Positions 8,715-64,000 of a stretch of DNA of 64,000 nucleotides are shown one piece after another. The first letter of the stretch is position 1; the number at the start of each line of letters is the position of its first letter. The notes beneath the pieces were generated by a model. The model did not search any database and was not told the origin of the DNA. It saw nothing but the letters and a program-made list of their open reading frames with translations. The position numbers and the translations under genes were made by a program. The DNA comes from Patescibacteria group bacterium (lineage in GTDB: Bacteria; Patescibacteriota; Patescibacteriia; UBA9934): NCBI GenBank assembly GCA_049296775.1, contig JBAQTB010000001.1:224992-288991 (forward strand), read 5' to 3'.

Positions 8715-8737
8715 AACGCTCTCAGTATAGCATGCGA

Positions 8738-10124: not shown

Positions 10125-11027
10125 TTATTTTTTAAGAGCTTTCAAGTAAGCCTTAAGCTCTTTCTTAACTTCATCATGCTCTAGCCCAAGCTCAATTTGC
10201 GCCAAAATAAACTGGAGTTTATTGCCACAGTCATACCGCACGCCCTCAAACTTACAGGCGTACATGGGGCCGTTCTCTTTCAAGAGTGTCTCAAAAGCAT
10301 CAGCCAATCTAATCTCACCGTCTTTGCCGGGCGTCTGTACCTTGAGCAACCTAATTATGTCTGGAGTAATCACATACCGGCCCACTGCCGCCAAATTAGA
10401 TGGCGCGTCTTCCGGCTTGGGCTTTTCTACGAATTTATCGATCTTCCACACCTTAGACCCCACATTCTTACCCGCGATCACGCCGTAACTAGACACCTTA
10501 GCCTTAGGCACGGGCTGAATAGCCACCACTGGAGCGTGATATTTCTCGTAAGTTTCCATGAGCTGCCCAATGGCTGGTTGTTTGCCAGTAATAATGTCAT
10601 CGCCAAACAATACTGCAACTGATTCGTCATCGCCCACAAACGGAGCAGCAGACAAAATAGCATGGCCGTCACCAAGCGGTTTTTGCTGACGCACAAAGGC
10701 GAATTTAGCTAATTTTCCAAGCTCCTGAATCTGCTCTAGCTCTTTATACTTACGCTTCTGTTCTAAGCGATACTCCAACTCAAAGTTACGATCAAAATGA
10801 TCTTCAATGGCGCGTTTACCAATGGCAGTCACGAAAATAATTTCTTCGATCCCAGCGGCCACGGCTTCCTCTACAATATATTGAATCACCGGTTTATCAA
10901 CCACCGGCAACATCTCCTTAGGCTGAGCCTTAGTAGCAGGCAAAAATCTCGTGCCCATACCGGCCACAGGAATGATAGCTTTACGAATAGTCTGAGACAT
11001 AGCTTTTACAGTATAGCAAACATGCAT
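10125..11027 (-). CDS. galU: UTP--glucose-1-phosphate uridylyltransferase
   Basis: Motifs AIIPVAGMGTRFLPATKAQPKEMLPVVDKPVIQYIVEEA and VGRYV. Probable true start at MSQTIRK, about 11000. Confidence 0.9.
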   Translation of the reverse strand: MHVCYTVKAMSQTIRKAIIPVAGMGTRFLPATKAQPKEMLPVVDKPVIQYIVEEAVAAGIEEIIFVTAIGKRAIEDHFDRNFELEYRLEQKRKYKELEQIQELGKLAKFAFVRQQKPLGDGHAILSAAPFVGDDESVAVLFGDDIITGKQPAIGQLMETYEKYHAPVVAIQPVPKAKVSSYGVIAGKNVGSKVWKIDKFVEKPKPEDAPSNLAAVGRYVITPDIIRLLKVQTPGKDGEIRLADAFETLLKENGPMYACKFEGVRYDCGNKLQFILAQIELGLEHDEVKKELKAYLKALKK

Positions 11028-12935: not shown

Positions 12936-12985
12936 GAGTCAAGGGCCTCAAAAGACTAGACAAAAGTAAGTTTTTGTGCTAATCT

Positions 12986-21428: not shown

Positions 21429-21491
21429 CTCCAGCCCAACCCCGCTCTTGTAACACTCCAGTTTTTCTGCTAATCTGCCTCTGTTCATTAG

Positions 21492-38789: not shown

Positions 38790-41045
38790 TTAGGCGCGTG
38801 GTTTTGGGGCTGAACTGCTAGGCTTTTGCACCTTAGCTTTCATAGCGTCAGTATACACGTTGCCTTCTGCTTGTTTCATGGACAGATTGATGCGGCCTTT
38901 TTCATCAATTTCGATCACTTTGACTTTGACCATGTCCCCTACTTTGACGATATCGGTGACCTGGTCAACGCGCCAAGGAGCGAGTTCAGATACGTGGACT
39001 AGACCATCTTTGCCAGGTAGTACTTGCACGAAAGCTCCAAAATCCATGAGTCTCACCACTTCACCATTGAAGAGTTCTCCAGGTTGAATTTCGCGGGTAA
39101 GGTTATTGACCCAGTCGTAAGCAGCTTGTCCGGATACGCCGTCAACGGCAGTGATTAGAACTAAGCCGTCTTGCTCGATATCAATTCCGGTAACTCCAGT
39201 TTTCGCGATGATTTCGTTAATCATTTTGCCACCAGGACCAATAACTTCACGAATCTTGTCTGGGTTGATCTTGAGCTTGAGGATACGTGGCGCATTGGGT
39301 GATAATTCAGCGCGTGGGGCGGCAATAGTCGCGGTCATGACATCGAGGAGCTTAAGTCTGGCCTCACGTGACTTAGTAATCGCCTCGGTTACTACAGAGT
39401 GGGGTACGCCATCAGTTTTAGTGTCCAACTGAATGGCGGTAATACCGGTGTGGCTACCAGTGATTTTGAAGTCCATGCCACCAACGCCGTCTTCTAGATC
39501 TTGAATATCGGTAATGACCTGGTAATTTTCACCGTCACTCGCCAGTCCCATGGCAATACCAGCAATCGGAGCTTTGATAGGCACGCCGGCGTCCATTAAG
39601 GCCAAAGTCGTGGCGCAAGTTGACGCCATGGAGCTGGAACCATTGGACATGAGGGTTTCTGAAACGACTCTGATAGCGTAAGGGAACTCCTCTGGTTCTG
39701 GGATCATGAAAGCGAGCGCTTTTTCTGCTAACGCACCGTGACCAATTTCGCGGCGACCGGCGCCACGCAATGGTTTGGCCTCGCCCACCGAGAACGGAGG
39801 AAAGTTGTAATGATGCATGAAGCGTCTTTCACCTACGATCTCCATGCCATCCAGGGTTTGTTTGTCACCAGGGGCGCCAAGGGTACAAACGGACAGAACC
39901 TGAGTTTCACCACGGGTGAAGTAGCCGCTGCCATGAACGCAAGGCAAAAGTGCGACTTCAGCGGTGAGCTGACGAATGTCATTCAAACCACGACCGTCAA
40001 CGCGTTGTTTGCGGTCAATAATGGCACGTGTAATGGCGGAATCGATAAACTCGCCCAACATGCCTAGGCCGAGTTTAATACTCTCATCATCGAGGTTTTG
40101 AGTTTTGAGGAATTCAGCTGATAGTGTTTTGAGTTCAGACTTGGCAGATGCCCGTTCTGCTTTGGTAGCCTGAGGTGCGCCGAAAAAGAGTGTTTCAATG
40201 GTTTTATCAGCGAACGGCTTGAGAATAGCTTTGACTTCAGTAGCTTTGGCGAGTTTAGCCGTGTCTTCAGGAGTTTTTGGATCAAGAAGATTGACTTTAG
40301 CTTTGCCGTGATCATCACGCACCTCTTCAATTAAGGCGATAACTGGACCAAGGCTGGCTTGGCCAAATTCAATCGCCTCAAGTACCTGGCTCTCTGGAGC
40401 TTCATCGCAGCCAGCTTCAAGCATGATGACTTTGTCTGGTGTGCCGGCAACGTCAACGTCAAACTTGGTTTGCTCACGCTCAGCGTAGGTTCCGTTTAAA
40501 ATTAGCTGTTCGTTGAGGCGATTAACTCGGGCTGCGGCAATTGGGCCGTTCCAAGGAATATCAGACATGTGCAGAGCGCAAGAAGCGGCGATGAGTCCAG
40601 GAACATCAGCGTCATTCACGCCATCAAAGGCCAGGACGGAGATGATGATCTGAACGTCGTTCTTGATCCGCTGATCAAAGAGTGGACGAATGGCGCGATC
40701 GATAAAACGTGCTGCGAGCACAGCCTCATCAGTTGGGCGACCTTCGCGCTTAATGAAACGAGAGCCCTTGATTCTGCCCGCGGCGTAAAGTTTTTCTTCA
40801 AAATCCACCATGAGTGGGAAGAAATCCATGCCTCCGCGCACGTCTTTTGACAAGACGGCCGTGGCGAGTACGACGGTGTCACCGTATCTAACGGTACAAG
40901 TGCCGTTGGCGGCTTGGGCGAATTTACCAACTTCAATGGTGAGTGGCTTGCCTCCAAACTCTAATGCGTAGCTGGTCTTGGTCATAGACATAAAGATAAT
41001 CGGCCAGAGGTGAAAGGGCGCGTAAGGAATTACACGCCGTTTCAC
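38790..41045 (-). CDS. pnp: polyribonucleotide nucleotidyltransferase (PNPase)
   Basis: Two RNase PH domains, a KH domain and a C-terminal S1 domain (GEVVRLMDFGAFVQV). Probable start at MSMTKTSYAL (~40991). Confidence 0.95.
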   Translation of the reverse strand: MKRRVIPYAPFHLWPIIFMSMTKTSYALEFGGKPLTIEVGKFAQAANGTCTVRYGDTVVLATAVLSKDVRGGMDFFPLMVDFEEKLYAAGRIKGSRFIKREGRPTDEAVLAARFIDRAIRPLFDQRIKNDVQIIISVLAFDGVNDADVPGLIAASCALHMSDIPWNGPIAAARVNRLNEQLILNGTYAEREQTKFDVDVAGTPDKVIMLEAGCDEAPESQVLEAIEFGQASLGPVIALIEEVRDDHGKAKVNLLDPKTPEDTAKLAKATEVKAILKPFADKTIETLFFGAPQATKAERASAKSELKTLSAEFLKTQNLDDESIKLGLGMLGEFIDSAITRAIIDRKQRVDGRGLNDIRQLTAEVALLPCVHGSGYFTRGETQVLSVCTLGAPGDKQTLDGMEIVGERRFMHHYNFPPFSVGEAKPLRGAGRREIGHGALAEKALAFMIPEPEEFPYAIRVVSETLMSNGSSSMASTCATTLALMDAGVPIKAPIAGIAMGLASDGENYQVITDIQDLEDGVGGMDFKITGSHTGITAIQLDTKTDGVPHSVVTEAITKSREARLKLLDVMTATIAAPRAELSPNAPRILKLKINPDKIREVIGPGGKMINEIIAKTGVTGIDIEQDGLVLITAVDGVSGQAAYDWVNNLTREIQPGELFNGEVVRLMDFGAFVQVLPGKDGLVHVSELAPWRVDQVTDIVKVGDMVKVKVIEIDEKGRINLSMKQAEGNVYTDAMKAKVQKPSSSAPKPRA

Positions 41046-41132
41046 CTAAAGTGTCCGGCCGAAGATTAAGTTAATCATGAAGGAACGATGACGGTGGCTC
41101 ACTTGAATCAAGTGGGCCACCGAGCATCGGGA

Positions 41133-41795
41133 CTACACGGCAGCGTTTGGAGTGGCTTTACGGCGGCGGCGTGGGCGTTCTGATTGAGCGGCAGGCGCAA
41201 CGGGCTCAGAGTGCTCTTTCTGTTGCTGCTCGGCGATGACATCATCAAAGGTGTCTACAGCCGATGATTTAGTGTTGGGCGTTGGTCGATATTTTGGATC
41301 GTTGATAAGGAAGCTGCCGAGATCATCAGAAAAGTTGGTGTAAATATCGGCGCATTCCACCAGCTTAGATGAAGTTGATTCGCGGAAGGAGGCCACGTGG
41401 AAGATGCGGCCGCGATTTTTTACGTACTCACCAAGAGGCACGTAGTCTCCATCACCGGAAACGATGATGACGACGTCCAGCATGTCGATCATGCGAATGA
41501 TATCCACGGTGATACCTACGTCCCAGTCCCCTTTCTTATGGCCTGAATCGTATTCTAGCAATTCTTTTGTGTTCACTTCAATGCCCATCTTGTGCAGGGC
41601 TTCAAAGAATGGGAGCTCCTCACCGGTTTTGGTAGAAACGGTGTAAGCAATAGCGCGTACCAAGCGTTGATCGCCTAAAGTTTTCAGGACGATGTTTCCA
41701 AAGTTGACCTTACTGCCATAAATATTTCTGGCACTGTAGTACATGTTTTGCACGTCGATGAAAACTCCGACGCGTCTGTGGCTCAAATCGAGCAT
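41133..41795 (-). CDS. NYN/LabA-like PIN-fold domain protein
   Basis: GVFIDVQNMYYSARN...IIVSGDGDYVPL is the NYN signature. Basic C-terminal tail. Confidence 0.7.
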   Translation of the reverse strand: MLDLSHRRVGVFIDVQNMYYSARNIYGSKVNFGNIVLKTLGDQRLVRAIAYTVSTKTGEELPFFEALHKMGIEVNTKELLEYDSGHKKGDWDVGITVDIIRMIDMLDVVIIVSGDGDYVPLGEYVKNRGRIFHVASFRESTSSKLVECADIYTNFSDDLGSFLINDPKYRPTPNTKSSAVDTFDDVIAEQQQKEHSEPVAPAAQSERPRRRRKATPNAAV

Positions 41796-42217: not shown

Positions 42218-42671
42218 CCGTATAGTCGTAGTGAGAGGGACTCAAGCCTCAAACCATGGCTATCGGCAGGTTATTTATGGGAGAAGTCTAGCTAAAAAAG
42301 CGCTAAACGTCAAGTTTTGAGCCTTAAAGAAAAACCGTCGCCTCCAGGGGAAGCGACGGCCGCGTGACAAGCGTCACAAGTCTGCAAGTGGAGTGCCTAC
42401 GAGGGGCACTCTGTAAACGGGTTTATGCCGAGCGTTGCTCGGCGTCAGTGGGTATCGTCAGAAGGTGGGGGCCCGGATGCCGAGGGGAAGGACCGGCGGC
42501 TCTCTGAGCGCTTCATGGCGTACCTCAAGCCAGTTTTACCTGGCTAGGAGTTGGGGGCTGGCTGAATCGCCATCTTTGCGACTCCAACACAAAGACAAGA
42601 CTATTCATGCCTGGTTTGGTAGGATTCGTCAATGCGCATGGTACAATTTACGACACATAAAGCTTCCGAAT

Positions 42672-44589: not shown

Positions 44590-44882
44590 CAGATCTGTTT
44601 ATACGTAACGAGTTTGAGCGAAACGGATGTTTCTATCGGGTGTCAGTGGTAGTCAGCTAAGACGGAATGACTCAAACAAAAAACCGTTTTATTTGTGACG
44701 AGTTTGGGTGACCGGGGAGAAAATCTTGAGGCGTAGGTTGAGCTTACGGTAAACAGAAAACCAGTTTATTCGTGACGAATTTGGATGAACGGGAAAGAAA
44801 TTTTCGAGGCGTAGGCAATCCTACGGAGAGAAAATTTTAGGGACCCGTGAGTCCGAAGTCGGCCGAATAAACTGGTTTTCCA
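44590..44882. repeat. three degenerate ~72-75-bp tandem repeats plus a 16-bp inverted repeat (GAAAACCAGTTTATTC 44756-44771 / GAATAAACTGGTTTTC 44865-44880) abutting the 3' end of tRNA-His
   Basis: Units begin GTTTATNCGTRACGARTTTG and end with the hairpin CGTAGG..CCTACG. The last unit's head is repeated inverted 2 nt from the tRNA. Confidence 0.6.
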
Positions 44883-44958
44883 TGGGGTGGCTAACGGGAA
44901 TTGAACCCGTACTAGAGGTACCACAAACCTCTGTGATAACCATTTCACCATAGCCACC
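44883..44958 (-). tRNA. tRNA-His (anticodon GTG) with genomically encoded G-1 and CCA
   Basis: Reverse complement reads G-GTGGCTA-TG-GTGAAATGGTTATCAC-A-GAGGTTTGTGGTACCTC-TAGT-ACGGGTTCAATTCCCGT-TAGCCAC-C-CCA. Confidence 0.9.
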
Positions 44959-45132
44959 ATGCGGCTAGGAATTAAGGGTCTTACCAACAAAGTGGCAGTA
45001 AGGGCTTAATTTCTGGGCGTGGGCCTGAATTGTCTTTAGAAGGTCCATTGCGAGGCGTAGTTTAGCAGCTTTTTAAGAAAAAGGCAACTTTTAAGGGTCT
45101 GGGCCGTATTTGGCTAATACAAAGGTAAAAGA

Positions 45133-45519
45133 CTTGACTGGATTTAGATTTTATGCTAATCTACTTCCCTCGCAGCGCTCTTTGCCGCGAGACGGAGGTT
45201 CCTTTGAAACTCGATCACGTTCCGAAGCCGCAAGGCTCTACAAAAGTAAAAACAAACCCATTGGACATCGAGTTCAACGCCGACACCGACGCCATCGACA
45301 ACTGCTGACACCCGCGACGGCCTGGAGAGTGAAGGTCTGGACGGAGGGCTCCTCTTCCGTCCAAGCCTTCAACGGCTGCCGTGAAACTGGTCCTCGGACT
45401 GGTGGAACGGCAGCATAAGTCTGGTGACCTGCCTTTGGTCCCAGCGAGTAAACATCAGCTTCGGCTGACGCGTGCTCAGGCACTTGCACCCAACAGTTCG
45501 CTGTTGGGTGTATTTTTTT
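45133..45519 (+). ncRNA. candidate ~350-nt structured non-coding RNA (promoter TTGACT-17-TGcTAATCT at 45133-45161; intrinsic terminator 45487-45519), identity unknown
   Basis: No credible ORF; the only one is a TTG-start Arg-rich artefact. GC-rich and contains several perfect hairpins with GNRA/UUCG tetraloops (GGACGGA..TCCGTCC, CAGC-TTCG-GCTG, CACCCAACAG-TTCG-CTGTTGGGTG+T8). Lies 41 nt upstream of polA. Confidence 0.4.
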
Positions 45520-48199
45520 GCTTTTGCTTTTAGCGGGCATCAGCTACACTTCCGGGTATATGGAATCTCATGACAAAACATTTATCATTCTAGACGGTAA
45601 CGCCTTGTTGCACAGAGCTTGGCACGCTATTCCCCCACTCACTACTAAAGATGGCTTGGTAGTGAATGCAGCTTACGGCTTTACTAATGTAGTTGAGAAA
45701 ATGCTACAAACGTATAAACCGGATTACATGGCGGTGGCCTGGGACTTGCCCGGTGGAACGTTTAGACATGAGGAGTACGCTCCATACAAGGCTACACGTG
45801 AGAAGAAAGCGGATGAATTGTATGCGCAGATCCCAATTATTCAGGAGATTTTGGCTGCTTACGGTTTGCCGTCCTTCTCAGTAAAGGGTTTTGAGGCTGA
45901 TGACATTTTAGGTACGGTGGCGAGGTTGAATGAAGAACATGGCGGGATTGAAACTCTGATTGTGACGGGTGATTTGGATAGTTTGCAGTTGGTAAGCGAT
46001 AAAACTAAAGTCGTCTTTTTTGTTAAAGGTTTGTCAGAAGTCAAAATTTACGATGCCGCTGCTATTCACGAGCGTTATGGCTTGAGTCCGCTGCAGTTGA
46101 TCGATCTTAAGACGTTGTTGGGAGATACTTCTGACAATTTGCCGGGAGTAGCCGGGATTGGTGCTAAAAGTGCCTCAGAATTGTTGCAGACTTACGGAAC
46201 TTTGGAGAAGTTGCTAGAAGCGATGCAAGCTGGCACGTTGCCGGACAAGTACGCTAAGAAATTGAAGGATCAAGAAAAAACTATCGAACTCATGCGTCAT
46301 TTAGTGACGATTGTGAAAGATGTCCCGCTCAAGGAATTTGATTTGGAACAAACAGTTACTAGCAGTCCAGATGTGGAGAAGCTGTTGGGCTTGTTCAAAA
46401 CTTACGAGTTTAAGCAGTTAATTAAGAAATACGAAGGCAAATTAAGCGGTGAGGGTGTAGTGGCGGAGGTGCCGGTCAAGCAGATCAAAACTACTAAACT
46501 CAAAGGAGCGACAAGTTTGACTGAGGTGTCGAGTTTGCAGGCTTTAGACGCGCATATGTTGATGTTTTGGGTCGAGGTTAAGGCGACGGATTTATTTGGC
46601 GGCGGGATCGCGAGAATTTTAGTCAGCGATGGCACGAAAGTGTATGTGAAGTCTGAGCCGCAGACGGAGGATTTGCAGGCGGCGGTAGAGTTTGTGATGA
46701 CGGCTAAGGTGGTGGTGATGCATGACAGTAAGGCCATTTTGCACGCCCTTGCTCAGGCCGAAGTAGATTTTAGTGCGGTGTTTGCCGGATCAGAGGTAGT
46801 CGACACCATGTTGGCAGCGTATTTGATCGCCTCAAGTGTGCGTGACTTTGGTTTTAATGAAGTGGTGGCAGATCATTTGAACCTGACCGTGACTGAGACT
46901 TCTTCTGCAGTAGAACTCATGAGTGCCTTGGCGCAGTTAGCGGATAAACTAGTGACAAGATTGCAGACAGATGGCATGGCGGCGCTGTATAGGGATATCG
47001 AAGTCCCATTAGTGCCGGTGTTGTTTGGCATGGAGCGAGCCGGCATTGCAGTAGATAAACGTAAGTTAGAACAGTTATCTCAGGATTTTGCGACTACTTT
47101 AGAGGCTTTGACCAAGAAAATTTATAAGTTAGCTGGCAAGGAATTTAATATTAACTCCCCTGCCCAACTGGCTGAAATTTTGTTTACAACTTTAGGCTTG
47201 CCAACCAAGGGCATCAAAAAGACCAAGAGCGGTTACTCAACCGCGGCACCTGAGCTAGAAAAACTTGCTGAGACTAGTCCGATTATTGCCATGATTGAGG
47301 AATATCGCGAGGTCGCCAAACTTAAGTCAACGTATGCGGATTCATTGCCTTTGCTCGTGGCGGCTGATGGCAGAATTCATACTACGTTTAGTCAGGTTGT
47401 TGCGGCTACGGGTAGATTATCTTCTGCTAATCCTAACGTTCAGAATATTCCGATTCGGAGTGAATTAGGCTTAGAGATCAGAAAAGCGTTTATTGCGGAC
47501 AAGGGACGAGTGTTATTATCCGCTGACTATTCGCAGATTGAATTACGGTTAGCCGCACATATTGCTCATGATGAATCGTTTATCACCGCGTTTAAGTCTG
47601 GCACAGACATTCACAGGCTGACGGCGGCTGAAGTGTGGGAAGTGGCAGAAGATGCAGTTACCAAGCAGCAGCGTGCTGCCGCTAAAGCAATTAACTTCAG
47701 TATTTTGTACGGTGTGGGCGCACGTTCATTGGGACGAGCGACCGGACTTAGCTTTGCGGACGCTAAGCAATTTATCGCCAAATATTTTGAAGCACATCCA
47801 GCCATTTTGCAATACATGGACGCGATGAAGTTAAAGGCGCGCACGGATGGCTTTGTGGAGACTTTGTTTGGAAGACGTCGCTATTTGCCAGATGCGCAGT
47901 CAGGTATGCCGCAATTAGTGGCTGGCGCTGAACGGATGGCTGTGAACATGCCCATTCAGGGCACGCAGGCCGATATTCTGAAGATCGCCATGATTAGGAT
48001 TGCAGATTGGCTGAAAACCAGTAAGCTAGAGGCTAAGATGCTGTTGCAAGTGCACGATGAATTAGTGTTTGAAGTTTTAGAGTCTGAAGTTGAGGAGTTA
48101 GCCAAGAAAGTTCAGGAGTTAATGGCGGCAGTGATTGATTTGTCCGTGCCGTTAGTGGTGGACGTGGGATCAGCTAAGCGTTGGGGTGAGATTGATTAG
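45518..48199 (+). CDS. polA: DNA polymerase I
   Basis: 5'-3' exonuclease N-terminus (FIILDGNALLHRAWHA); polymerase motifs A (LLSADYSQIELR), B (RRAAKAINFSILYG) and C (QVHDELVFE). Start probably at MESHDKTF (~45560). Confidence 0.95.
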   Translation: MLLLLAGISYTSGYMESHDKTFIILDGNALLHRAWHAIPPLTTKDGLVVNAAYGFTNVVEKMLQTYKPDYMAVAWDLPGGTFRHEEYAPYKATREKKADELYAQIPIIQEILAAYGLPSFSVKGFEADDILGTVARLNEEHGGIETLIVTGDLDSLQLVSDKTKVVFFVKGLSEVKIYDAAAIHERYGLSPLQLIDLKTLLGDTSDNLPGVAGIGAKSASELLQTYGTLEKLLEAMQAGTLPDKYAKKLKDQEKTIELMRHLVTIVKDVPLKEFDLEQTVTSSPDVEKLLGLFKTYEFKQLIKKYEGKLSGEGVVAEVPVKQIKTTKLKGATSLTEVSSLQALDAHMLMFWVEVKATDLFGGGIARILVSDGTKVYVKSEPQTEDLQAAVEFVMTAKVVVMHDSKAILHALAQAEVDFSAVFAGSEVVDTMLAAYLIASSVRDFGFNEVVADHLNLTVTETSSAVELMSALAQLADKLVTRLQTDGMAALYRDIEVPLVPVLFGMERAGIAVDKRKLEQLSQDFATTLEALTKKIYKLAGKEFNINSPAQLAEILFTTLGLPTKGIKKTKSGYSTAAPELEKLAETSPIIAMIEEYREVAKLKSTYADSLPLLVAADGRIHTTFSQVVAATGRLSSANPNVQNIPIRSELGLEIRKAFIADKGRVLLSADYSQIELRLAAHIAHDESFITAFKSGTDIHRLTAAEVWEVAEDAVTKQQRAAAKAINFSILYGVGARSLGRATGLSFADAKQFIAKYFEAHPAILQYMDAMKLKARTDGFVETLFGRRRYLPDAQSGMPQLVAGAERMAVNMPIQGTQADILKIAMIRIADWLKTSKLEAKMLLQVHDELVFEVLESEVEELAKKVQELMAAVIDLSVPLVVDVGSAKRWGEID

Positions 48200-53134: not shown

Positions 53135-55591
53135 GTGAGTTTAAGGCAGCGAGTTTATTTTAGATTAGTTGGGATATTTTTGACGATCATTGTTTCAATG
53201 TCGCCATTTTTTGGTGGGTTACAAGTGGCGAAAGCAAGTACGGTAAATGATTTAACGGATCAACCTTCGAGTTTATTGATCTCGACGGATTCGAATCACA
53301 AATTCACCTTCACGTTAACTTCTGATATTGCTGAAGGTGAAACGTTTACATTCGATTTTCCAGCGGCTTTTGATACTGCCGCAATCACAGAAAATGATGT
53401 TGACGTGACTTCGGATGGCATTGATCTAGTCACAGATAGTACCTGTAGTTTGGGGACCGAAATGAGTATCGCGATGGCGGCGGACAGTTTGACTTTGACG
53501 AGTTGCGCGGGCTCGGGAGGGCTGAGTATTGGACGTGTTTTGCAGGTAGAAGTGGGGACTAACGCTTCGGCATCAGGTTCTGGAACGGAAAAAATTACTA
53601 ATCCAAGTACAGAAGGTACGTATTCTATTGGGATTGCAGGGACATCTGGCAATTTAGGTGCGATTCCGTTACCAATTGGGACGCGGAGCGGAGCGGGAGT
53701 ATCGGTCAATTTCAGCGGCGGATCTTCTGGAGGAGGGCCGACAGGTGGTGGCGGAGGGGGTGGAGGTGGCGGTGGGCTTCCCGATCCTGATCCAGACCCT
53801 GATCCTGAACCTGAACCGGAGCCCGAGCCTGAACCAGAGCCTGAACCGGAACCAACTCCTGACCCTGAACCGGAACCTGAGCCAACACCGGATCCTGATC
53901 CTGAGCCAGAACCTGACCCGGAGCCCGAGCCTCCAATTGAGCCTGAGCCTGATGAACCGGTGGAAGATGAGGATGAACCAACTGACACTCAAGTGAATGA
54001 TCCGGCGGTAAGAATACGGATTTTTGGAGCACCAGGCTTGCAATTAAGCGTGGGAGAGGCGAGTGTGGACGTGATTGCGGGCACAAGGGTGCGCGTCAAT
54101 ATCGAAGTCGATTCTGCGCCGGATATCCGTGCAGTACTTTTGATCATTGGTGACGATCAGTACGTTTTGTCAGATGACGGTACGGGTAAATTTACTGGTA
54201 GCCTGACGATTCCAGCATCGGATGAAGTCATCAGCGGCTTAGTTTTGTTAGCTGACGGCGCGCAGTTATCGACTAATTTGGCGCTTCACATAGTCTCTGC
54301 GGGCTCAGTTTATGTTGTGATTGACGGACAGCGGCAAAATTTGAGTGACAGTGTGATTACGGCGTATACGCAGGCTCAAGGACGTGAAGCGGCTTGGGGG
54401 GCGTCTGGTTACGGTCAAGCCAACCCGGTTCTTTCAGCCTCGGGGAGTTTTTACTGGTACGTGCCGAACGGTGGTTATGTGGTTTATGCCAGTCACGACG
54501 GGTATGGAGAAGGGAGACAAACGGTGCAGGTGAGAAACAATATTTTGGCACCGAGCATGCAATTGTTTGTGCCGGTTGTTGAGGTTCAAGATTCGATTTT
54601 GCCGTTGCCGGCGGCTGAGGCCATAGCCGCAATTCAGGACATTTTAGCGACCCCAGAGGCGCAAACGGTGGCTAAAGTGGCTTTACCGACCACGATCGCA
54701 CTGACCGTTGGTTTGATTACGCTCTTGGCGTTTGGGTTCAATTTATTGCCGTATCTTCAATACTTTTTAACGTCACCATTCCTATTTTTCGGTCGTAAAC
54801 GCCGGAACGCATACGGGGTAGTTTATAACTCGATTAGTAAGATTCCGATTGAATTAGCAACAGTACGTTTGTACAACTGGGCGGATAATCGACTAGTCAA
54901 AAGTGTGGTCACAAGTCCGGATGGTAGGTATTCGATGATCGTTAATCCGGGTGAGTATCGTCTGCTGGTGGTGAAACCTGGTTTTGAGTGTCCGAGTCAA
55001 TACGTGGGAGAAGTGAAGACTGATGGGAAATATCTTGATGTCTACACCGGTCAGATGTTGAAAGTGACGGAGACAGAGGCTTTAGTGGCCGCAAATATTC
55101 CGATTGATCCGTCTCAAGCGGATGCTCATCATGCCCCACGATTATTGGCATTGAAACGTTTCGCTAGAACGCTACAGCAGATTTTGGCTCCAATTGGCGT
55201 GTTATTGTCGGTAATTGTTTACATAATTTCTCCGTCGACCTTTGCTTTGGTGATGGCGATCGCGCAATTTGTGGTTTGGTTACTTGTGATCAGATTGGTG
55301 AAGCCGACCAAGCCGCAAGGTTGGGGGATTGTGTATGACGAAAAGAGTCAACAGCCTGTGGGCAATACTGTCATTCGGGTGTTTGAACCGAAGTATAATA
55401 AGTTAGTCGAGACTGCTCTCACTGACAGTCGCGGTAGGTACTCGTTCATACTCGGGCCGAACGAATATTTTGTGACTTACAACAAGCCCGGATACACGGA
55501 AAAGATTGTGCGCCCAATCGATTACACTAATAAGCCGGAGCCAACGCCCGTGGCGATGAACGTTGCGTTGCAACATGTATCGGGGGAGTAG
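53135..55591 (+). CDS. large membrane protein with poly-Gly/(Asp-Pro, Glu-Pro)n spacer and two C-terminal carboxypeptidase-regulatory-like beta-sandwich domains
   Basis: N-terminal TM; tract G4-G15 followed by [36 protein letters not shown]...; central TM helices; motifs [27 protein letters not shown] and [27 protein letters not shown]. Confidence 0.6.
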
Positions 55592-55592
55592 C

Positions 55593-58500
55593 ATGTTCCA
55601 GATCGGAAAATACAGCTTTAAACGAACACTCGCCAGAGTGCTACTGGTGGGTATTTGTGTTTTGCAAGGGTTGAGTGCGGTGACTCCGGTGAGTCCTGTC
55701 TTGGCTGCTTCGGCTCCAAATATTTTGAATTATCAAGGACGCGTTTTAAATGCGAATGGTATTCCAGTGACGGATACTTCCTTGACCATGATCTTTGAGT
55801 TTTACACCTCGTTGGCTGGTGGCACGTGTGTGTGGTCAAACAGTTCAGCGACTTGTGCATCAGCAACAGGCAAGGCTGTGACTTTGACGGATGGATTGTT
55901 TACCCAGAGTCTGGGTGACACAACGGACTCATTTGCGGCAATCGGTGATGATATTTTTGGAGATAACGCGGCTTTGTTTTTGCAGGTCACTATTGCTGGT
56001 GAAGTTTTAACGCCAAGAAAGCAGATGGTAGCCGCACCGTACGCTTTGAATTCTGAAACTTTGGATGGCTTGAATGCGGATACAGATGGAGCCACGAGTA
56101 GCGCGATCGTAGCTTTGAGTTCAGCAGGAAATGTTATTTTTACCGGTGATTCAACGGGCGCTACGGTTGATGCGGGTGTGGCGTATATCAATCCAGCTGC
56201 GGCTGGAGCTAATGAAACCTTGTTAGGAATTGGTGATAACGGAACGGAGAGATTTAGGATCGATAAAGAGGGGGACGTGTTTATTAAGTCGATTGAATTA
56301 GACGGTGTAGGTACGAACAACGTCACTTCTGGTGCTTCTCTGATAGGTACATTTAACGAATTTAGTTTGTCGGCGGGCACTACTGTTCAGGATGTTTTGG
56401 ACGATCTCGACCAGGCCATTGATGATATTGTAACGGGTGGAGCGGTTTCCAAATGGACTGATGATGGCACGTTTACGTATTTAACTTCCGTCACGGATGA
56501 CTTTGTGTTAGGTGACAGCACGATTGCTGGAGCTTCACTGTATTTCGATGTTGGTACTGGTCAGCTGGACCTTGGTACCGACGAAGCGCTAGGCGGTATT
56601 TTGCGCTTGTATAGCGTAACAGCTGCGACAGCTGATCCTACTTTAGCTGCGGATGCCAGTGGAAATTTGGATATTACGACTGCGACCGTAGAGATTTCTG
56701 GTGATTTAGAAGTGTCTGGTGGTGACATTACAACTGCGGCTGCGACCTTGAACTTGGCTGCGACGAACGCTACCACGGTCAACGCCTTCGCTGCGGCTAC
56801 GACGCTGAACATTAATGACGCCGCGGTTACCTCTACCATCGACATTGGTGGCGTGACATCGAGCGGTACGAACACCGTTAACATTGCGACTAACGCGACA
56901 GCTGCTGACGGTATTACCATCGGTAACAGTCACGCTTCGACAACTCTTGCTCTGACTGGAGGTGATGACTGGTCAATTGCAGCCACCGGCGTCATGACAT
57001 TGTCAGCTTCTGCTGCGGCAACTACCGCCATCGTCATCACTGACACCGATTACACCAACTCCTTGTCGATCGGCGACAACAACATTACCGGTACTACTTA
57101 CTCATTAATTGGTACGACATCAACGATTGACTTTACGAATTTTGACGTCGCCTCGACTGGAGCTATCACTGTCGCAGCTGGCACAGGGCTAGACACGAAC
57201 GGTGCTGGTGCTCTCGCCCTTGGTAACACGAATGCTACTTCAGTCTCAGTTTGTAACTCAGCCGCTTGTGACACGATTTCTATTGGTACCAACGCTGATG
57301 CTGACGCCATTACGATTGGTGACTCGAGCGACACTGTAATCATCAACGGTACGGCACTCTCTCTAGTTATCGGCGCTACCACCGTTGCTGGAGCTGAGAT
57401 CACTATCTTAGACGGTGGCATCGCTCTGTCAGAATTAACCGACTCCGGCACATTGACCGCTACTACTGTCGACATCAACGGAGGTGCCATTGATGGCACG
57501 GCCATTGGAGCTTCTTCGCCCTCAACCGGAGCCTTCACGACTCTGTCTAGCACTGGCGTCACGGCTCTCGGTAACAACTCGGCCACGGTCGCGATCAACT
57601 CCTCTGACTGGGACATCTCAGCTACGGGTGCTATGACAGGGATTGGGGCTATTACAGCTGATGGCTTGATCACTGGCTCAGCCGGCCTGACAGTTTCTGG
57701 CGGTAACATCACGACTTCAGCTGCTCAGATCCTAGGAGCTTCTCCATTTGTATTCGAAGGTGCGACTGATGATGATGTCACTACGACATTCGCCATTACT
57801 GATCCAACCGGAGCTAGAACGATCACTTTCCAGAACGCTTCAGGCACTGTCGCTTTCTTGACTGATACTGTTTCTCCGACACTGACAGATAACGTGGCTG
57901 ATGCGCTAGATATCCAAGAGGGCACTAACAACTACATCAACATTAATACTACGGATGCTTCAGAGAGCATCGCTTTTGGTAATGCCACGACTAACCCTAG
58001 TTTCTCTTTCTTGGGTAGTGGTACGGTGACCACTGCCGGAGACATCGCCCTGAACGGAGGAGATCTCACGAGTTCATCGGCGACCTTCAACCTGTTAGCT
58101 ACGGCCTCAACGACAGTCAACGCCTTCGCCGCTGCCACGACGCTTAACATTAATGACGCCGCGGTTACTTCTACCATCGACATTGGCGGTGTTACTTCTA
58201 GCGGCACTAACACCGTTAACATTGCGACTAATGCTACGGCCGCTGACGTGATTACCATCGGTAACAGTCACGTCTCGACGACTGTAGCTCTAACAGGTGG
58301 TGACGACTGGTCAATCGCTGCGACCGGTGTCATGACCCTGTCAGCTTCTGCTTCTGCGACAACTGCCATCGTCATTACTGACACCGACTACACCAACTCC
58401 TTGTCGATTGGCGATAACAACATTACCGGTACTACTTACTCACTGATTGGTACGACTTCTACCATCGACTTTACTAACTTTGACGTCGCCTCTACTGGAG

Positions 58501-61500
58501 CAATTACTGTCGCCGCCGGTACAGGCCTCGACACGAACGGTGCTGGTGCTCTAGCCCTCGGTAACACGAATGCTACTTCAGTCTCAGTGTGTAACTCAGC
58601 CGCTTGTGACACGATTTCTATCGGTACAAACACCGATGCTGACGCTATAAACATCGGTGACACTAATGACACCGTGACCATTAGCGGTACTTCACTGTCT
58701 CTAGTTATCGGCGCTACGACTGTCTCCGACGGTGAGATTACTATTCTTGATGGCGGCATCGCTCTCTCTGAACTGACTGACTCGGGCACTCTTACTGCTA
58801 CCACCGTCGACATCAACGGTGGCGCTATTGATGGTACTGCCATTGGTGCTAACTCTCCTTCATCTGGTGCCTTCACCACACTATCGAGTACTGGCGTCAC
58901 GGCTCTTGGTAATAACTCGGCTACAGTTGCGATTAACTCAAGTGACTGGGACATCTCAGCCACTGGAGCCATGACAGGGATTGGAGCTATTACTGCTGAT
59001 GGCTTGATCACTGGCTCAGCCGGCCTGACAGTTTCTGGCGGTAACATCACGACTTCAGCTGCTCAGATCCTGGGCGCTTCTCCATTTGTTTTTGAGGGCG
59101 CTACTGATGATGATGTAACTACTACTTTTGCGATTACTGATCCAACCGGAGCTAGAACGATCACTTTCCAGAACGCATCTGGCACTGTCGCTTTCTTAAC
59201 TGACACTCTGTCGTCGACATTAACAGATAACATCACTGACTCATTAGACATCCAAGAGGGTACTAACAATTACATCAACATTAATACTACGGATGCTTCC
59301 GAGAGCATCGCTTTTGGTAATGCCACCACTAACCCAAGTTTCTCGTTCCTTGGAAGCGGCACAGTTACTACTGCTGGAGACATCGCCCTGAACGGTGGCG
59401 ACTTAACGAGTTCATCCGCGACCTTCAACCTGTTAGCTACCGCTTCTACCACAGTTAACGCCTTCGCTGCGGCGACGACGCTTAACATTAACGATGCGGC
59501 GGTCACCTCTACCATCGACATTGGTGGCGTTGACTCGAGTGGCACTAACACGGTTAACATTGCGACTAACAGCACAGCAGCCGATGTAATTACGATCGGC
59601 AACACCAACGCCTCAACAACTCTCGCTCTGACTGGAGGTGATGACTGGTCAATTGCAGCAACGGGAGTCATGACTCTCTCTGCTAGCGCTGCCGCAACTA
59701 CAGCCATCGTCATTACTGACACCGACTACACCAACTCCTTGTCGATTGGCGATAACAACATTACCGGTACTACTTACTCACTGATCGGTACGACCTCGAC
59801 TATTAACTTCACTAACTTTGATGTCGCTTCAACTGGAGCTATTACTGTAGCGGCTGGTACAGGTTTAGACACTAATGGAGCCGGAGCCCTCGCACTCGGA
59901 AACACTAATGCTACCTCGGTCTCTGTCTGTAACTCAGCCGCTTGCGATACGATTAGTATTGGTACGAATGCTGATGCGGATGCCATTACGATCGGTGACT
60001 CGAGTGACACGGTGATCATTAACGGTACGGCACTCTCTCTCGTCATCGGAGCTACAACGGTCGCTGGAGCTGAGATCACTATCCTAGACGGTGGCATTGC
60101 TCTGTCCGAATTAACCGATTCTGGCACTCTGACTGCTACCACCGTCGACATCAATGGAGGTGCCATTGACGGCACGGCCATTGGCGCTGCTTCACCATCG
60201 ACGGGAGCTTTTACAACTTTATCGAGCACCGGTAACGTTACTTTGTCTAGTGCTCAGATCCTAGGAGCTTCTCCATTGGTATTCGAAGGAGTGACTGATG
60301 ACAACGTCACTACCACTTTTGCCATTACCGATCCAACCGGAGCTAGGACTATAACTTTTCAGAATGCGTCAGGTACAGTAGCTTTTCTAACGGATACCAT
60401 TTCTCCTACGCTGACGGATAACACTTCCGATGCTCTGGATATTCAGGAGGGAACGAATAATTACATCAACATTAATACCACCAATACCTCTGAGAATATT
60501 GCTTTTGGTAATGCCACCACCAACCCCAGCTTTTCTTTCCTGGGTAGTGGTACGGTGACCACTGCCGGAGACATCGCCCTGAACGGTGGCGACTTAACGA
60601 GCTCATCCGCAACTTTCAACCTGTTAGCTACGGCATCGACTACTGTCAACGCCTTCGCGGCTGCCACCACGCTTAACATTAATGACGCTGCAGTTACCTC
60701 GACCATCGACATCGGTGGTGTGACATCAAGTGGTACTAACACCATTAACATTGCGACTAACGCTACGGCCGCTGATGCTATCACGATTGGTAACACTCAC
60801 GTGGATACAGCTTTGGAGCTTAGAGGTGGTGATGACTGGTCGATTGCATCGAGTGGAGTTATGACTCTGTCAGCTAGTGCATCCGCGACTACAGCTATAG
60901 TCGTTACTGACACTGACTACACTAATGCTCTATCAATTGGAGACAATAACATCACGGGTACTACTTACTCATTAGTAGGTACAACAGCAACCATCAATTT
61001 TACCAACTTTGATCTATCCGGCACTGGAGACATTACGGTTGCTGCTAACGGTGGTCTGGATACGAATGGTGCTGGCTCATTGCTGTTAGGCGGAACTAAT
61101 GCCACCACTGTCTCAGTGTGTAACTCTGCCGCTTGCGATAATTTTAATCTTGCCACTAACGCTGATGCAGATATAATTTCAATTGGTGATTCAATGGATA
61201 GTCTAGCCTTATCATCAGCTAACTGGTCGATCACGACTGCTGGTTTGATTACGACTGCCGACGACCTCGCCTTGAACGGAGGGGATCTAACTAGCTCATC
61301 TGCCACCTTCAACTTGCTAGCTACTGCCTCGACCACCGTCAACGCCTTCGCCGCAGCCACGACACTCAACCTCAATGATGCAGCAGTGACGTCCACTATT
61401 CATATTGGTGGTGTGACTTCTAGCGGGACTAATACCGTGAATATCGCTACCAACGGTACAGCTGAAGATGAGATTAACATTGGTAATACTAATGCGGCTA

Positions 61501-64000
61501 CATCTTTGGAGCTGATTGGCGGTGATGATTGGTCGATTGCGAATACCGGAGTTATGACCCTGTCTACCAGCTCTACCCCCGCAACGGCGATTGTAGCTAC
61601 GGATACGGGTTACACTAATGCGCTCTCAATTGGAGATAACAATATTACCGGTACCACCTACTCATTGGTTGGTACTACGTCAACAATCGATTTTACTAAC
61701 TTTGACGTAGCCTCGACCGGAGCTATCACTGTCGCTGCGGGTACTGGACTAGACACTAACGGCGCAGGAGCTTTAGCTATCGGTAACACGAACGCTACTT
61801 CAGTCTCAGTCTGTAACTCAGCGGCTTGTGACACAATTACGATTGGTACTAACGCTGACGCCGATGCGATTACGATTGGTGACTCAAGTGATTCAGTATC
61901 AGCAGTTTCGGCTAACTGGTCGATTACGACGGCTGGTTTAATCACGACAGCCGACGATCTCGCCTTGAATGGAGGGGATCTCACTAGCTCATCCGCGACC
62001 TTTAACCTGCTTGCTACCGCCTCGACTACCGTTAACACCTTTGCCGCAGCCACTACGCTTAACATTAATGACGCTGCGGTTACTTCCACAATCGACATTG
62101 GAGGTGTTACCTCAAGCGGTACTAACACCGTCAACATTGCCACTAACTCGACTGCCGCTGATGTCATCACGATTGGTAACACGAATGCTTCGACCACTCT
62201 AGCTCTGACAGGTGGTGATGATTGGTCAATTGCAGCAACCGGTGTCATGACCCTGTCTGCTTCTGCTTCCGCGACAACCGCCATCGTTATCACGGACACC
62301 GATTACACCAACTCCTTGTCGATCGGCGACAATAACATCACCGGTACCACTTATTCACTGATTGGTACGACGTCAACGATTAATTTTACCAACTTTGACG
62401 TAGCCTCGACTGGAGCTATCACTGTCGCTGCGGGTACTGGACTAGACACAAATGGAGCTGGAGCATTGGCACTCGGTAACACTAACGCTACTTCAGTCTC
62501 AGTGTGTAACTCAGCTGCTTGTGACACGATTTCTATCGGTACCAATACAGACGCTGACGCTATAAGTATTGGTGATGCTAATGACACTTTGGCGATCGAT
62601 ACCTCGACGTGGTCAGTAACTACCGCTGGAGCTGCGTCATTTAGCACCCTTGCTACCAATAGCGATGTTAATTTCAACTTCACTACTGCCAGTAGTGGCA
62701 CGGAAAACTTCGTGATCGCCAGTACGCATGCGACTGACGCCACTTTGGTAGTCCAGCAAATTGGCATGACCAATACGGCCGCAGCCGACACCGGCACCAA
62801 TTACTTGCTCGCCCTAACTAATGAAAATGATGGCGGTGCTACCGGTACGCCTGATGCCTTATTGTTCATCTCCCAAGACGATACTAACGAAGCCGTGGCT
62901 AGCGGTATTCTTTTCGATGCTGCTGGCGGTGGCTTAACCACCGCGATCATGGCTACCGATGCACAAATTGATACCGCCCTCAGCGTGGGAGCTAATGACA
63001 TCGTGGGTACCACAGGTTTAATTAACTACACCAACTTCGATGTTGCCTCAACTGGGGCTATTACTGTCGCTGCAGGTACGGGGCTAGACACTAATGGCGC
63101 AGGCGCCCTCGCCCTTGGTAATACCAACGCTACTTCAGTCTCAGTCTGTAACTCTGCCGCCTGCGACACGTTTACGATTGGTACAAATACAGATGCCGAC
63201 GCTATCACCATCGGCGATACTAACGATACCCTCACCATCGGCGCCCTTACCTCAATCACCAACAACTCCGCGACCACATCCGAGGCAGTTACCATTACTA
63301 CTAATGGGCTTACATCGGGTAGATCGTTAATTGTGGCGAGTACAGGCGAAGCAGCGACAACGGGCACGGGAGCTCTTATTTATGTTAGTGGCACTAGAAC
63401 GTCTACCGGTACTATTTCCGGCCATGTTCTAGATGTTACGAGGCAAATGAATAATAGTTCAGGTGGTTTACTTTCTGTCACCGGAGATCTTCTGAGTATT
63501 TTAAGTAATAATTCCAATACTTCAGGCACTTTGACAGATTCTGCGACTTTGCTGAATGTCGAGCAAAGTAATACCGGCGCGACTGGCAGCGTTTTGAACA
63601 TTGGCAACAACGGCACTGGTTCCGCAATATTTGTTACTCAAGATAATGCTACTGGCACGACGGTTGACACGACTGCTGGTGGGGCTATTCATGTTGATAA
63701 TACCGGTAACGATAACTACGGACTCACGGTTTATAGCGATAATTCAGCAGCTTCGTCGCCTTTAGCTTACTTTTTCGCTGATCACACTACCTTTGCTAGT
63801 GATGTTGTTGCCATTCGGAATGATTCTTCCGCTTCTGCTTTGGTAATTACTCAAAATACTGTGGCGAATGCGACGGTGGGAGCGAATTCCCAAGCATTGG
63901 TGATTAATGTAAATGAAGCCGCAAACAGTGAGGAGGTGATTGTTATTATTTCAGATGCAGATGGGACGCCTGATTTAGAGTTTAGGTTCGAGAATGATGG
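55593..64000 (+). CDS. giant repetitive cell-surface fibre/adhesin-like protein (>2,800 aa within window; 3' end beyond window)
   Basis: ATG 2 nt after the upstream stop. Signal or TM segment FKRTLARVLLVGICVLQGLSAV. N-terminal domain with NILNYQGRVLNANGIPV...PRKQMVAAPYALNSETLDG. The frame is then uninterrupted to the window end, encoding Thr/Ala/Gly/Asn/Ser-rich repeats. Not in the ORF track because no stop codon occurs in-window. Confidence 0.8.
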   Translation, partial: MFQIGKYSFKRTLARVLLVGICVLQGLSAVTPVSPVLAASAPNILNYQGRVLNANGIPVTDTSLTMIFEFYTSLAGGTCVWSNSSATCASATGKAVTLTDGLFTQSLGDTTDSFAAIGDDIFGDNAALFLQVTIAGEVLTPRKQMVAAPYALNSETLDGLNADTDGATSSAIVALSSAGNVIFTGDSTGATVDAGVAYINPAAAGANETLLGIGDNGTERFRIDKEGDVFIKSIELDGVGTNNVTSGASLIGTFNEFSLSAGTTVQDVLDDLDQAIDDIVTGGAVSKWTDDGTFTYLTSVTDDFVLGDSTIAGASLYFDVGTGQLDLGTDEALGGILRLYSVTAATADPTLAADASGNLDITTATVEISGDLEVSGGDITTAAATLNLAATNATTVNAFAAATTLNINDAAVTSTIDIGGVTSSGTNTVNIATNATAADGITIGNSHASTTLALTGGDDWSIAATGVMTLSASAAATTAIVITDTDYTNSLSIGDNNITGTTYSLIGTTSTIDFTNFDVASTGAITVAAGTGLDTNGAGALALGNTNATSVSVCNSAACDTISIGTNADADAITIGDSSDTVIINGTALSLVIGATTVAGAEITILDGGIALSELTDSGTLTATTVDINGGAIDGTAIGASSPSTGAFTTLSSTGVTALGNNSATVAINSSDWDISATGAMTGIGAITADGLITGSAGLTVSGGNITTSAAQILGASPFVFEGATDDDVTTTFAITDPTGARTITFQNASGTVAFLTDTVSPTLTDNVADALDIQEGTNNYININTTDASESIAFGNATTNPSFSFLGSGTVTTAGDIALNGGDLTSSSATFNLLATASTTVNAFAAATTLNINDAAVTSTIDIGGVTSSGTNTVNIATNATAADVITIGNSHVSTTVALTGGDDWSIAATGVMTLSASASATTAIVITDTDYTNSLSIGDNNITGTTYSLIGTTSTIDFTNFDVASTGAITVAAGTGLDTNGAGALALGNTNATSVSVCNSAACDTISIGTNTDADAINIGDTNDTVTISGTSLSLVIGATTVSDGEITILDGGIALSELTDSGTLTATTVDINGGAIDGTAIGANSPSSGAFTTLSSTGVTALGNNSATVAINSSDWDISATGAMTGIGAITADGLITGSAGLTVSGGNITTSAAQILGASPFVFEGATDDDVTTTFAITDPTGARTITFQNASGTVAFLTDTLSSTLTDNITDSLDIQEGTNNYININTTDASESIAFGNATTNPSFSFLGSGTVTTAGDIALNGGDLTSSSATFNLLATASTTVNAFAAATTLNINDAAVTSTIDIGGVDSSGTNTVNIATNSTAADVITIGNTNASTTLALTGGDDWSIAATGVMTLSASAAATTAIVITDTDYTNSLSIGDNNITGTTYSLIGTTSTINFTNFDVASTGAITVAAGTGLDTNGAGALALGNTNATSVSVCNSAACDTISIGTNADADAITIGDSSDTVIINGTALSLVIGATTVAGAEITILDGGIALSELTDSGTLTATTVDINGGAIDGTAIGAASPSTGAFTTLSSTGNVTLSSAQILGASPLVFEGVTDDNVTTTFAITDPTGARTITFQNASGTVAFLTDTISPTLTDNTSDALDIQEGTNNYININTTNTSENIAFGNATTNPSFSFLGSGTVTTAGDIALNGGDLTSSSATFNLLATASTTVNAFAAATTLNINDAAVTSTIDIGGVTSSGTNTINIATNATAADAITIGNTHVDTALELRGGDDWSIASSGVMTLSASASATTAIVVTDTDYTNALSIGDNNITGTTYSLVGTTATINFTNFDLSGTGDITVAANGGLDTNGAGSLLLGGTNATTVSVCNSAACDNFNLATNADADIISIGDSMDSLALSSANWSITTAGLITTADDLALNGGDLTSSSATFNLLATASTTVNAFAAATTLNLNDAAVTSTIHIGGVTSSGTNTVNIATNGTAEDEINIGNTNAATSLELIGGDDWSIANTGVMTLSTSSTPATAIVATDTGYTNALSIGDNNITGTTYSLVGTTSTIDFTNFDVASTGAITVAAGTGLDTNGAGALAIGNTNATSVSVCNSAACDTITIGTNADADAITIGDSSDSVSAVSANWSITTAGLITTADDLALNGGDLTSSSATFNLLATASTTVNTFAAATTLNINDAAVTSTIDIGGVTSSGTNTVNIATNSTAADVITIGNTNASTTLALTGGDDWSIAATGVMTLSASASATTAIVITDTDYTNSLSIGDNNITGTTYSLIGTTSTINFTNFDVASTGAITVAAGTGLDTNGAGALALGNTNATSVSVCNSAACDTISIGTNTDADAISIGDANDTLAIDTSTWSVTTAGAASFSTLATNSDVNFNFTTASSGTENFVIASTHATDATLVVQQIGMTNTAAADTGTNYLLALTNENDGGATGTPDALLFISQDDTNEAVASGILFDAAGGGLTTAIMATDAQIDTALSVGANDIVGTTGLINYTNFDVASTGAITVAAGTGLDTNGAGALALGNTNATSVSVCNSAACDTFTIGTNTDADAITIGDTNDTLTIGALTSITNNSATTSEAVTITTNGLTSGRSLIVASTGEAATTGTGALIYVSGTRTSTGTISGHVLDVTRQMNNSSGGLLSVTGDLLSILSNNSNTSGTLTDSATLLNVEQSNTGATGSVLNIGNNGTGSAIFVTQDNATGTTVDTTAGGAIHVDNTGNDNYGLTVYSDNSAASSPLAYFFADHTTFASDVVAIRNDSSASALVITQNTVANATVGANSQALVINVNEAANSEEVIVIISDADGTPDLEFRFEND
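56746..63200 (+). repeat. tandem coding repeats inside the giant gene: three ~1,339-bp units (56746, 58086, 59425), then units of ~1,190, ~691, ~695 and ~650 bp; each carries the V-C-N-S-A-A-C-D motif
   Basis: Copies are about 85-90% identical at the nucleotide level, with differences concentrated at synonymous third positions. Confidence 0.8.

Follow-up and report, generated by a model that had tools for sequence, protein, structure and literature searches.

Here we describe a promoter-to-terminator unit of about 350 nt, lodged between tRNA-His and polA in a 64,000-nt stretch of a Patescibacteria genome (hereafter the window), that we tentatively read, at slightly less than even confidence, as a stand-alone, lineage-specific non-coding RNA (ncRNA) gene, a candidate drawn from one genome and from its sequence. 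The element carries the marks of a stand-alone sRNA, namely a promoter matching the host consensus and an intrinsic terminator at its 3' end. Part of the original prediction of a novel sRNA holds up, in that the unit is self-contained, belongs to no known family and has a fold specific to the plus strand, whereas no conservation was found. We infer that the element is transcribed, that its product is an RNA rather than a peptide and that this RNA has some function.

The locus and its relatives

The host PolA is annotated as that of a Patescibacteria MAG whose closest named relatives are Candidatus Uhrbacteria. Its 90% cluster is a singleton, with the nearest relatives 78% identical by BLASTP; in the alignment made here, the closest relative, L008, has a PolA 79% identical. 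Our comparison set comprised the polA neighbourhoods of nine relatives at 73-79% PolA identity together with more distant ones (L001-L017 and L019). Only one other copy of the locus is public, in Logan SRR28012402, and it shows no difference across 6,156 nt.

Within the window the element is a compositional outlier, with a GC content of 0.564 overall and 0.60 at 45300-45499, where polA has 0.467 and the whole window 0.487; the other listed intergenic regions range from 0.39 to 0.52, all below the element, which speaks for the ncRNA reading. The claim of a GC-rich segment bracketed by a promoter and a terminator is borne out. The features of the element, of its flanks and of the corresponding interval in relatives are collected in Table 1.

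Table 1. Positions of features in the window and, where a genome handle is given, in relatives of the host.
Feature	Position	Strand	Remarks
tRNA-His	44883-44957	-	ARAGORN
Divergent tRNA-His promoter, TTGCCT-N14-TGCTAAACT	45059-45087	-	Left border of the variable slot
Upstream TAAAAGAC and -35 hexamer TTGACT (45134-45139)	45126-45139	+	TTGACA matched at 5/6
Extended -10, TGCTAATCT	45154-45162	+	Genome-specific -10 motif TGCTAnnCT
Examples of TGCTAnnCT	8724-8732, 11010-11018	-	
Examples of TGCTAnnCT	12977-12985, 21468-21476, 45542-45550	+	
51-aa ORF, ATG at 45153	45153-45308	+	Called by one public pipeline
Element, predicted transcript of ~350 nt	45169-45519	+	Predicted start 7-9 nt past the -10, end in the T-run
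5'-terminal hairpin, CUCGC...GCGAG	45169-45191	+	MFE and centroid
GGAGG (45194-45198), 5 nt, TTG (45204), 34-codon ORF, TGA (45306-45308)	45194-45308	+	Sequence
Candidate peptide of the element's small ORF (putative), MKLDHVPKPQGSTKVKTNPLDIEFNADTDAIDNC			
Long-range 9-bp stem, GAACUCGAU (45207-45215) / AUCGAGUUC (45267-45275)	45207-45275	+	MFE and centroid
AGCC-GCAA-GGCU hairpin	45226-45237	+	Within the long-range stem
A-rich unpaired stretch	45238-45262	+	Within the long-range stem
Hairpin c, 17-position stem, one C/A mismatch, loop GCUCCU	45331-45370	+	MFE and centroid
Hairpin d, 8 bp, symmetric 3x3 internal loop GAA/GGA, 7 bp, CUCG loop	45375-45414	+	MFE and centroid
Hairpin f	45421-45444	+	MFE and centroid
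Hairpin e, UUCG loop	45446-45477	+	MFE and centroid
Intrinsic terminator, 12-bp stem, UUCG loop, T7	stem 45485-45512, T-run 45513-45519	+	-18.8 kcal/mol
polA promoter block, GCTTTTGCTTTT...AGCTACACT (45542-45550), 9 nt, ATG	45520-45559	+	Outside the element
Slot empty	L008, L013, L015, L019		
Slot with a terminator stub only	L009		
Slot with an unrelated, poorly folding ~230-nt insert, GGAGG-ATG-14 codons	L011:4815-5040		z -1.9
Slot with TTGACA-type promoter, 5' hairpin, ~275-aa ORF and terminator	L012, L014, L016/L017, P0122 contig, distant L001		
~275-aa slot gene	L012:3098-3928, L014:2056-2928, L016:259-1092, L001:3077-3887		
tRNA-His leader hairpins	L012:2796-2925, L011:4612-4742, L008:4753-4882, L013:2625-2760 and 2766-2890, L015:2679-2954	-	

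The promoter and its class

The promoter of the element has the layout TTGACT-N14-TGCTAATCT (45134-45162); the TTGACT hexamer and the extended -10 are present as predicted, though one base to the right of where they had been placed. Since TAATCT agrees with TATAAT at no more than 3 of 6 positions, the promoter escaped a generic sigma-70 scan. The genome has a -10 motif of its own, TGCTAnnCT, with 16 copies in the window versus 7.2 +/- 2.5 expected, a count reached in 0 of 100 shuffles, and the element's copy is identical to the -10 of tRNA-Cys (21468) and one mismatch from that of tRNA-His (45059-45067, minus strand). The fuller pattern TTGNC-N15-TGCTANNCT has three matches in 64 kb where 0.02 would be expected, these being the element, the divergent tRNA-His promoter and 4098-4126. 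Furthermore, the TAAAAGAC region aligns with AAAAGACTAGACA of the 12950-12985 promoter and with TTAAAAG-TTGCCT of the tRNA-His promoter, and the AAAAGAC upstream of the element promoter is common to two other promoters. Taken together, the genome's own -10 motif, the full-pattern matches and the shared AAAAGAC make the predicted promoter credible and place it in the strongest class in the window, the one to which the genome's tRNA promoters belong.

Many genes carry their ATG 9-10 nt after a TGCTAnnCT -10 and are therefore leaderless; a Shine-Dalgarno motif is absent before all eleven window genes checked, including those for S15, S20, polA and RmuC. No leaderless start codon follows the element promoter, a further point in favor of an ncRNA.

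The predicted fold

The plus strand of the element folds with an MFE of -144.9 kcal/mol (z -4.9, terminator included). With the terminator left out, z is -3.8 on the plus strand (0 of 100 shuffles) versus -1.8 on the minus strand, a strand specificity owed to ten G-U pairs; hairpin c has two G-U pairs, at 45336/45365 and 45346/45355. The A-rich stretch within the long-range stem is 82% complementary to the U-tail region (duplex -5.1 kcal/mol), and the centroid fold offers another closing stem, which unites hairpins c, d and f in one junction. The plus strand has three stable tetraloop hairpins, closed by UNCG or CUYG loops on stems of 5 bp or more, where the window-wide rate predicts 0.21; the minus strand has none. 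The prediction of a segment rich in perfect tetraloop hairpins is sustained by these three; a fourth, AGCC-GCAA-GGCU, has a stem of just 4 bp. The strand-specific fold and the three hairpins speak for an ncRNA.

Several comparisons count against the ncRNA reading. Among the 806 windows of a GC-corrected scan the element comes 3rd and 6th, and this only with the terminator included. Its helices are long, serial and near-perfect, and it shows none of the short helices and junctions that characterize ribozymes and riboswitches. In 316-nt windows, the coding sequence of a gene that occupies the same interval in some relatives (see below) spans z +1.5 to -3.5, versus -4.1 for the element with the same script, and individual protein-coding genes there reach z -2.9 and -3.5, so that folding alone does not decide the matter. 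In light of the scan and of these controls, the fold signal is real without being overwhelming.

Elsewhere in the window, 16544-16896 (+) is the only fixed 352-nt bin with three stable-tetraloop hairpins on the plus strand, the element's own three straddling a bin boundary, and the best GC-corrected folding energy (z -3.7) is found at 40982-41297 (+), around a PNPase-like/NYN-domain gene junction.

A variable slot, and the possibility of a decayed gene

In all relatives the interval has a common frame, a tRNA-His promoter block and a polA-proximal block with a variable slot between them. The tRNA-His block GCGAGGCGTAGTYTAGCAG contains TGCTAAACT and TTGCCT/TTGCAA (minus strand), and the polA-proximal block ends in TACACT, followed after about 9 nt by the ATG. 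One of the slot states listed in Table 1 is a fast-evolving gene for a protein of ~275 aa, its GC content ~10 percentage points above that of its host's polA, for which no Pfam, PHROG, PADLOC or NCBIfam family was found. Its presence in L012, L014, L016/L017, P0122 and L001 makes it probably ancestral, and a neighbour-joining tree of PolA scatters the slot states, implying repeated loss or exchange. The L011 insert is probably a decayed remnant, unrelated both to the element and to this slot gene.

Two relatives have tRNA-His inverted onto the polA strand (L019:793-864; L014:1850-1924), and in L019 an IS200-like Y1 transposase (L019:243-737, Pfam E = 3.5e-7) sits beside it; mobile elements and inversions thus shape the region.

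The slot gene is like the element in its position and orientation, its TTGACA-type promoter, its 5' hairpin, its terminator before the polA -10 and its GC excess of ~10 percentage points over the host. It differs in that the two share no detectable DNA or protein similarity, the element being 350 nt without a long ORF. No homologue of the element itself was found in any locus of the comparison set, the nine relatives and the more distant ones, by blastn, nhmmer or a covariance model of the 3' domain. Concatenated translations of its ORFs gave no protein match, degenerate peptide scans and exact DNA patterns drew a blank in contigs of metagenomes and viruses, and in the phage and plasmid collections blastn met only chance matches of 28-44 nt; the literature yielded nothing on sRNAs of Candidate Phyla Radiation (CPR) bacteria at a tRNA-His/polA locus. 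The failure of all these searches to find a homologue, and with it any conservation or covariation, counts against the ncRNA reading. Absence of conservation had been named beforehand as an outcome that would refute the idea, and absence is what the nine relatives and the scanned public collections return. This rules out a widely conserved RNA, whereas a lineage-specific one would still be compatible, the nearest genome lying at 79% PolA identity.

Perhaps the element is a transcribed relic, a former protein gene of the slot (e.g., the ~275-aa orphan) or other cargo that has decayed so that an inert RNA is still made; this is the main rival reading, somewhat less probable than an ncRNA gene. 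What deletion and decay would leave behind, namely a promoter and a terminator around a start-codon region and part of a GC-rich interior, resembles what is seen, and the terminator-only slot of L009 and the L011 insert of ~230 nt with its GGAGG-ATG-14 codons show decay of this sort at this very place, although the L011 insert folds no better than chance. The probable ancestry of the slot gene fits as well, as do the GC excess that the element and the slot genes each have over host polA, the GGAGG-5 nt-TTG of the element, its coding-like composition over 35 codons, a marginal 3-periodicity in its 3' half and the fact that slot coding sequence folds nearly as well. However, an HMM of the slot-gene family gives negative bits in all six frames of the element, tblastn with the slot gene reaches a best E of 0.24 (2-kb database), and blastn and nhmmer find no similarity to slot content; a pseudogene of the ~275-aa gene was rejected, no residual protein similarity being found in any frame. 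Neither a perfect consensus promoter nor a perfect terminator is expected of decaying DNA in a streamlined genome, and both the folding signal and the tetraloop hairpins are features of the plus strand only. In support of an ncRNA, the host genome is small and has kept both promoter and terminator intact, where its relatives L008, L009, L013 and L015 have cleanly deleted the content of the slot.

Coding potential

The segment had been predicted to contain no ORF. No convincing coding frame is indeed present; nevertheless, a 51-aa ORF was called, a 34-aa version opened by GGAGG-5 nt-TTG can be read, and neither has relatives. It is improbable that the element is the mRNA of either protein (34 aa from TTG 45204 or 51 aa from ATG 45153) with a long structured 3' UTR. 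The GGAGG lies 5 nt ahead of the TTG, the longer ORF was picked by a public gene caller, and the 34-codon ORF resembles real genes in its GC by codon position (0.49/0.34/0.66, compared with 0.53/0.37/0.50) and in its purine share at position 1 (0.66, compared with 0.67), which makes the first 105 nt of the element coding-like in composition and weighs against an ncRNA. On the other hand, a Shine-Dalgarno start would be foreign to the eleven checked window genes, many of them leaderless, and by our own estimate a GGAGG with a start codon arises by chance about once per eight such sequences. The ATG of the 51-aa ORF lies inside the promoter spacer, directly before the -10 and upstream of the predicted transcription start.

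Nor do protein collections lend these ORFs any kin. An exact look-up of eight ORFs placed the 51-aa one in a singleton cluster from the same sample and left the other seven unmatched, no credible relative came from HMMER or from metagenome or viral contigs, and Pfam, PHROG, PADLOC and NCBIfam hold no family for it. With the 51-aa ORF as query, exhaustive HMMER searching recovered just the ORF itself and one Ig-repeat protein (E = 2.7e-6). The latter match was rejected, as its score sums four correlated repeats, its best single alignment reaches 30 bits and no Pfam Ig domain matches the ORF; we take it as chance, since 30 bits is far below significance for a search of 1.8 billion proteins (2.4e11 residues). 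Protein relatives were found for no translation frame of the element, in favor of an ncRNA. Neither a conserved ORF nor a host-typical translation start was found, which makes a small-protein gene unlikely, and the 34-codon ORF is probably not translated.

The terminator and polA

The intrinsic terminator was correctly predicted as a UUCG hairpin, of 12 pairs and -18.8 kcal/mol, and is followed by seven T residues rather than eight; likewise, polA does begin close behind it, with its ATG (45560) 40 nt after the T-run rather than 41. The terminator of the element is directional because no A-tract lies upstream, and its strength speaks for the ncRNA reading.

It had also been suggested that the element is a long cis-acting leader or attenuator that tunes polA through regulated termination. 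The element is co-oriented with polA, the terminator ends shortly ahead of the polA start codon and some read-through into polA is possible, yet this option is very improbable and did not survive the comparison. polA keeps a promoter block of its own, GCTTTTGCTTTT...AGCTACACT-9 nt-ATG, which is also retained in L008, L013, L015 and L019, all without the element, and whose spacing from -10 to ATG is the same as in the host's other leaderless genes; nine relatives express polA without such a leader. For the 5' arm of the terminator the best alternative pairing reaches -8.2 versus -18.8 kcal/mol for the hairpin, i.e., there is no antiterminator, and no riboswitch, T-box or other cis-regulatory Rfam family matches above noise at E <= 10. 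A riboswitch, T-box or attenuator leader was rejected on these three counts.

Known RNA families and repeats

At gathering thresholds, Rfam 15 reports five tRNAs and nothing else across the whole window, and at E <= 10 it returns noise only on 44950-45650, in line with the expectation that the element is neither tmRNA, RNase P RNA nor SRP RNA. Each of the housekeeping candidates was rejected: tmRNA, as ARAGORN finds none in the window, no Rfam match appears at E <= 10 and a tRNA-like end is absent; RNase P RNA of types A and B, unmatched in Rfam under either cut-off; bacterial SRP RNA, small or large, unmatched at E <= 10; and 6S RNA, with no Rfam match and MFE and centroid folds that form serial hairpins or a multibranch rather than a rod with a central bubble. 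A MITE, an IS200/IS605-derived element or a REP was set aside for want of terminal inverted repeats, a flanking duplication or a second copy in 64 kb. Direct or tandem repeats are absent inside the element, excluding a CRISPR, TIGR or other repeat array, and a DGR template was rejected on finding no repeats, no second copy and neither a reverse transcriptase nor a nuclease close by.

CPR RNAs can be divergent, the length would fit tmRNA or RNase P RNA, and an IS200-like Y1 transposase does occur in the same region of L019, but that the element is an over-divergent housekeeping RNA (tmRNA, RNase P, SRP or 6S) or a non-autonomous mobile element (a MITE or IS200/IS605 derivative) is the least probable reading of all, given that ARAGORN and cmscan (E <= 10) give no match, that neither a tRNA-like end nor a rod is seen, that a housekeeping RNA would not vanish from a syntenic locus without detectable similarity in any relative, and that terminal inverted repeats, a target duplication and a second copy in 64 kb are all absent.

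Other structures near tRNA-His and elsewhere in the window

In the relatives, the 5' leader of tRNA-His holds a long hairpin of ~115-130 nt, single or as two copies in tandem (Table 1), with the closing stem UAUUAAAUUU/AAAUUUAAUA and direct GCGAGC flanks. RNAalifold predicts 40 pairs for it, 21 with compensatory changes, in an alignment of only six sequences, and Rfam has no match; both a conserved leader RNA and a MITE-like insertion are possible identities. The leader of tRNA-His in the window (44966-45015) keeps only a 45-nt version. Downstream of tRNA-His, at 44674-44826, a 77-nt unit stands twice in tandem at 77% identity, each copy with a GAGGCGTAGG...CCTACGG hairpin, and the GAGGCGTAG motif is found again at the tRNA-His promoter (45050-45060).

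Between rpsO (S15) and a XerC-like integrase gene lies an intergenic region (42218-42671) of ~450 nt, with a GC content of 0.60 at 42300-42600 and several hairpins; it measures ~160 nt in L013 and L015 and has no Rfam match. Tandem repeats are also reported at 56650-63220, 53769-53963 and 4977-5057. The long ones, repeating every 1338, 1191 and 693 nt in 6-7 copies that are 65-89% identical, suggest repeated-domain surface proteins, and separate short Pro/Glu/Asp-rich repeats of 12-18 nt occur in the window.

Interpretation

If the element is an ncRNA gene, RNA polymerase would begin from a strong promoter of housekeeping type, in the class that also serves the host tRNA genes. The resulting RNA of ~350 nt would open with a 5' hairpin, continue with a domain that has an unpaired A-rich stretch and with three to four long GC-rich, tetraloop-capped hairpins, and end at a strong constitutive intrinsic terminator. 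Such an RNA would most likely act in trans, perhaps by binding a protein or by pairing with another RNA through the A-rich stretch.

Several known systems invite comparison. Like the CsrB/RsmZ sponges, the element is ~350 nt of serial hairpins between a strong promoter and a terminator, and such sponges are likewise poorly conserved between genera. It differs in holding 7 GGA motifs versus an estimated ~6 expected, mostly outside loops; with no enrichment of GGA, a CsrB-like sponge was rejected. Island-encoded and other lineage-specific bacterial sRNA genes are typically built from a sigma-70 promoter and an intrinsic terminator. The element shares with them its own promoter, a Rho-independent terminator, the absence of conservation outside a narrow lineage and an intergenic site close to tRNA genes and to a variable region that bears an integrase. 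It exceeds most of them in length, consists largely of long, near-perfect helices and is known from sequence alone. The intergenic-region approach of the Breaker laboratory is said to recover structured ncRNAs from long, GC-rich intergenic regions in AT-richer genomes. As a GC outlier (0.56-0.60) in a window of 0.49 GC with a well-folded prediction, the element resembles such candidates, though those gain acceptance only once many representatives show covariation, whereas the element is a single sequence.

With distinct reserve, we go a step further and propose that a highly expressed, structured RNA of ~350 nt may have replaced the orphan protein gene of a hypervariable slot in one Uhrbacteria-like (CPR) lineage. 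If true, protein and RNA cargoes would be interchangeable in one niche, and the element would found a new RNA family. For now, the value of the element is that of a flagged single-sequence orphan candidate, not of a discovery. To our knowledge, almost nothing is known of the regulatory and structural RNAs of CPR bacteria, whose sRNAs are poorly studied; an RNA confined to one lineage, strongly promoted and well folded, would give work on this group a concrete candidate. The locus shows, moreover, a small, symbiont-type genome swapping cargo in a fixed slot beside an essential gene.
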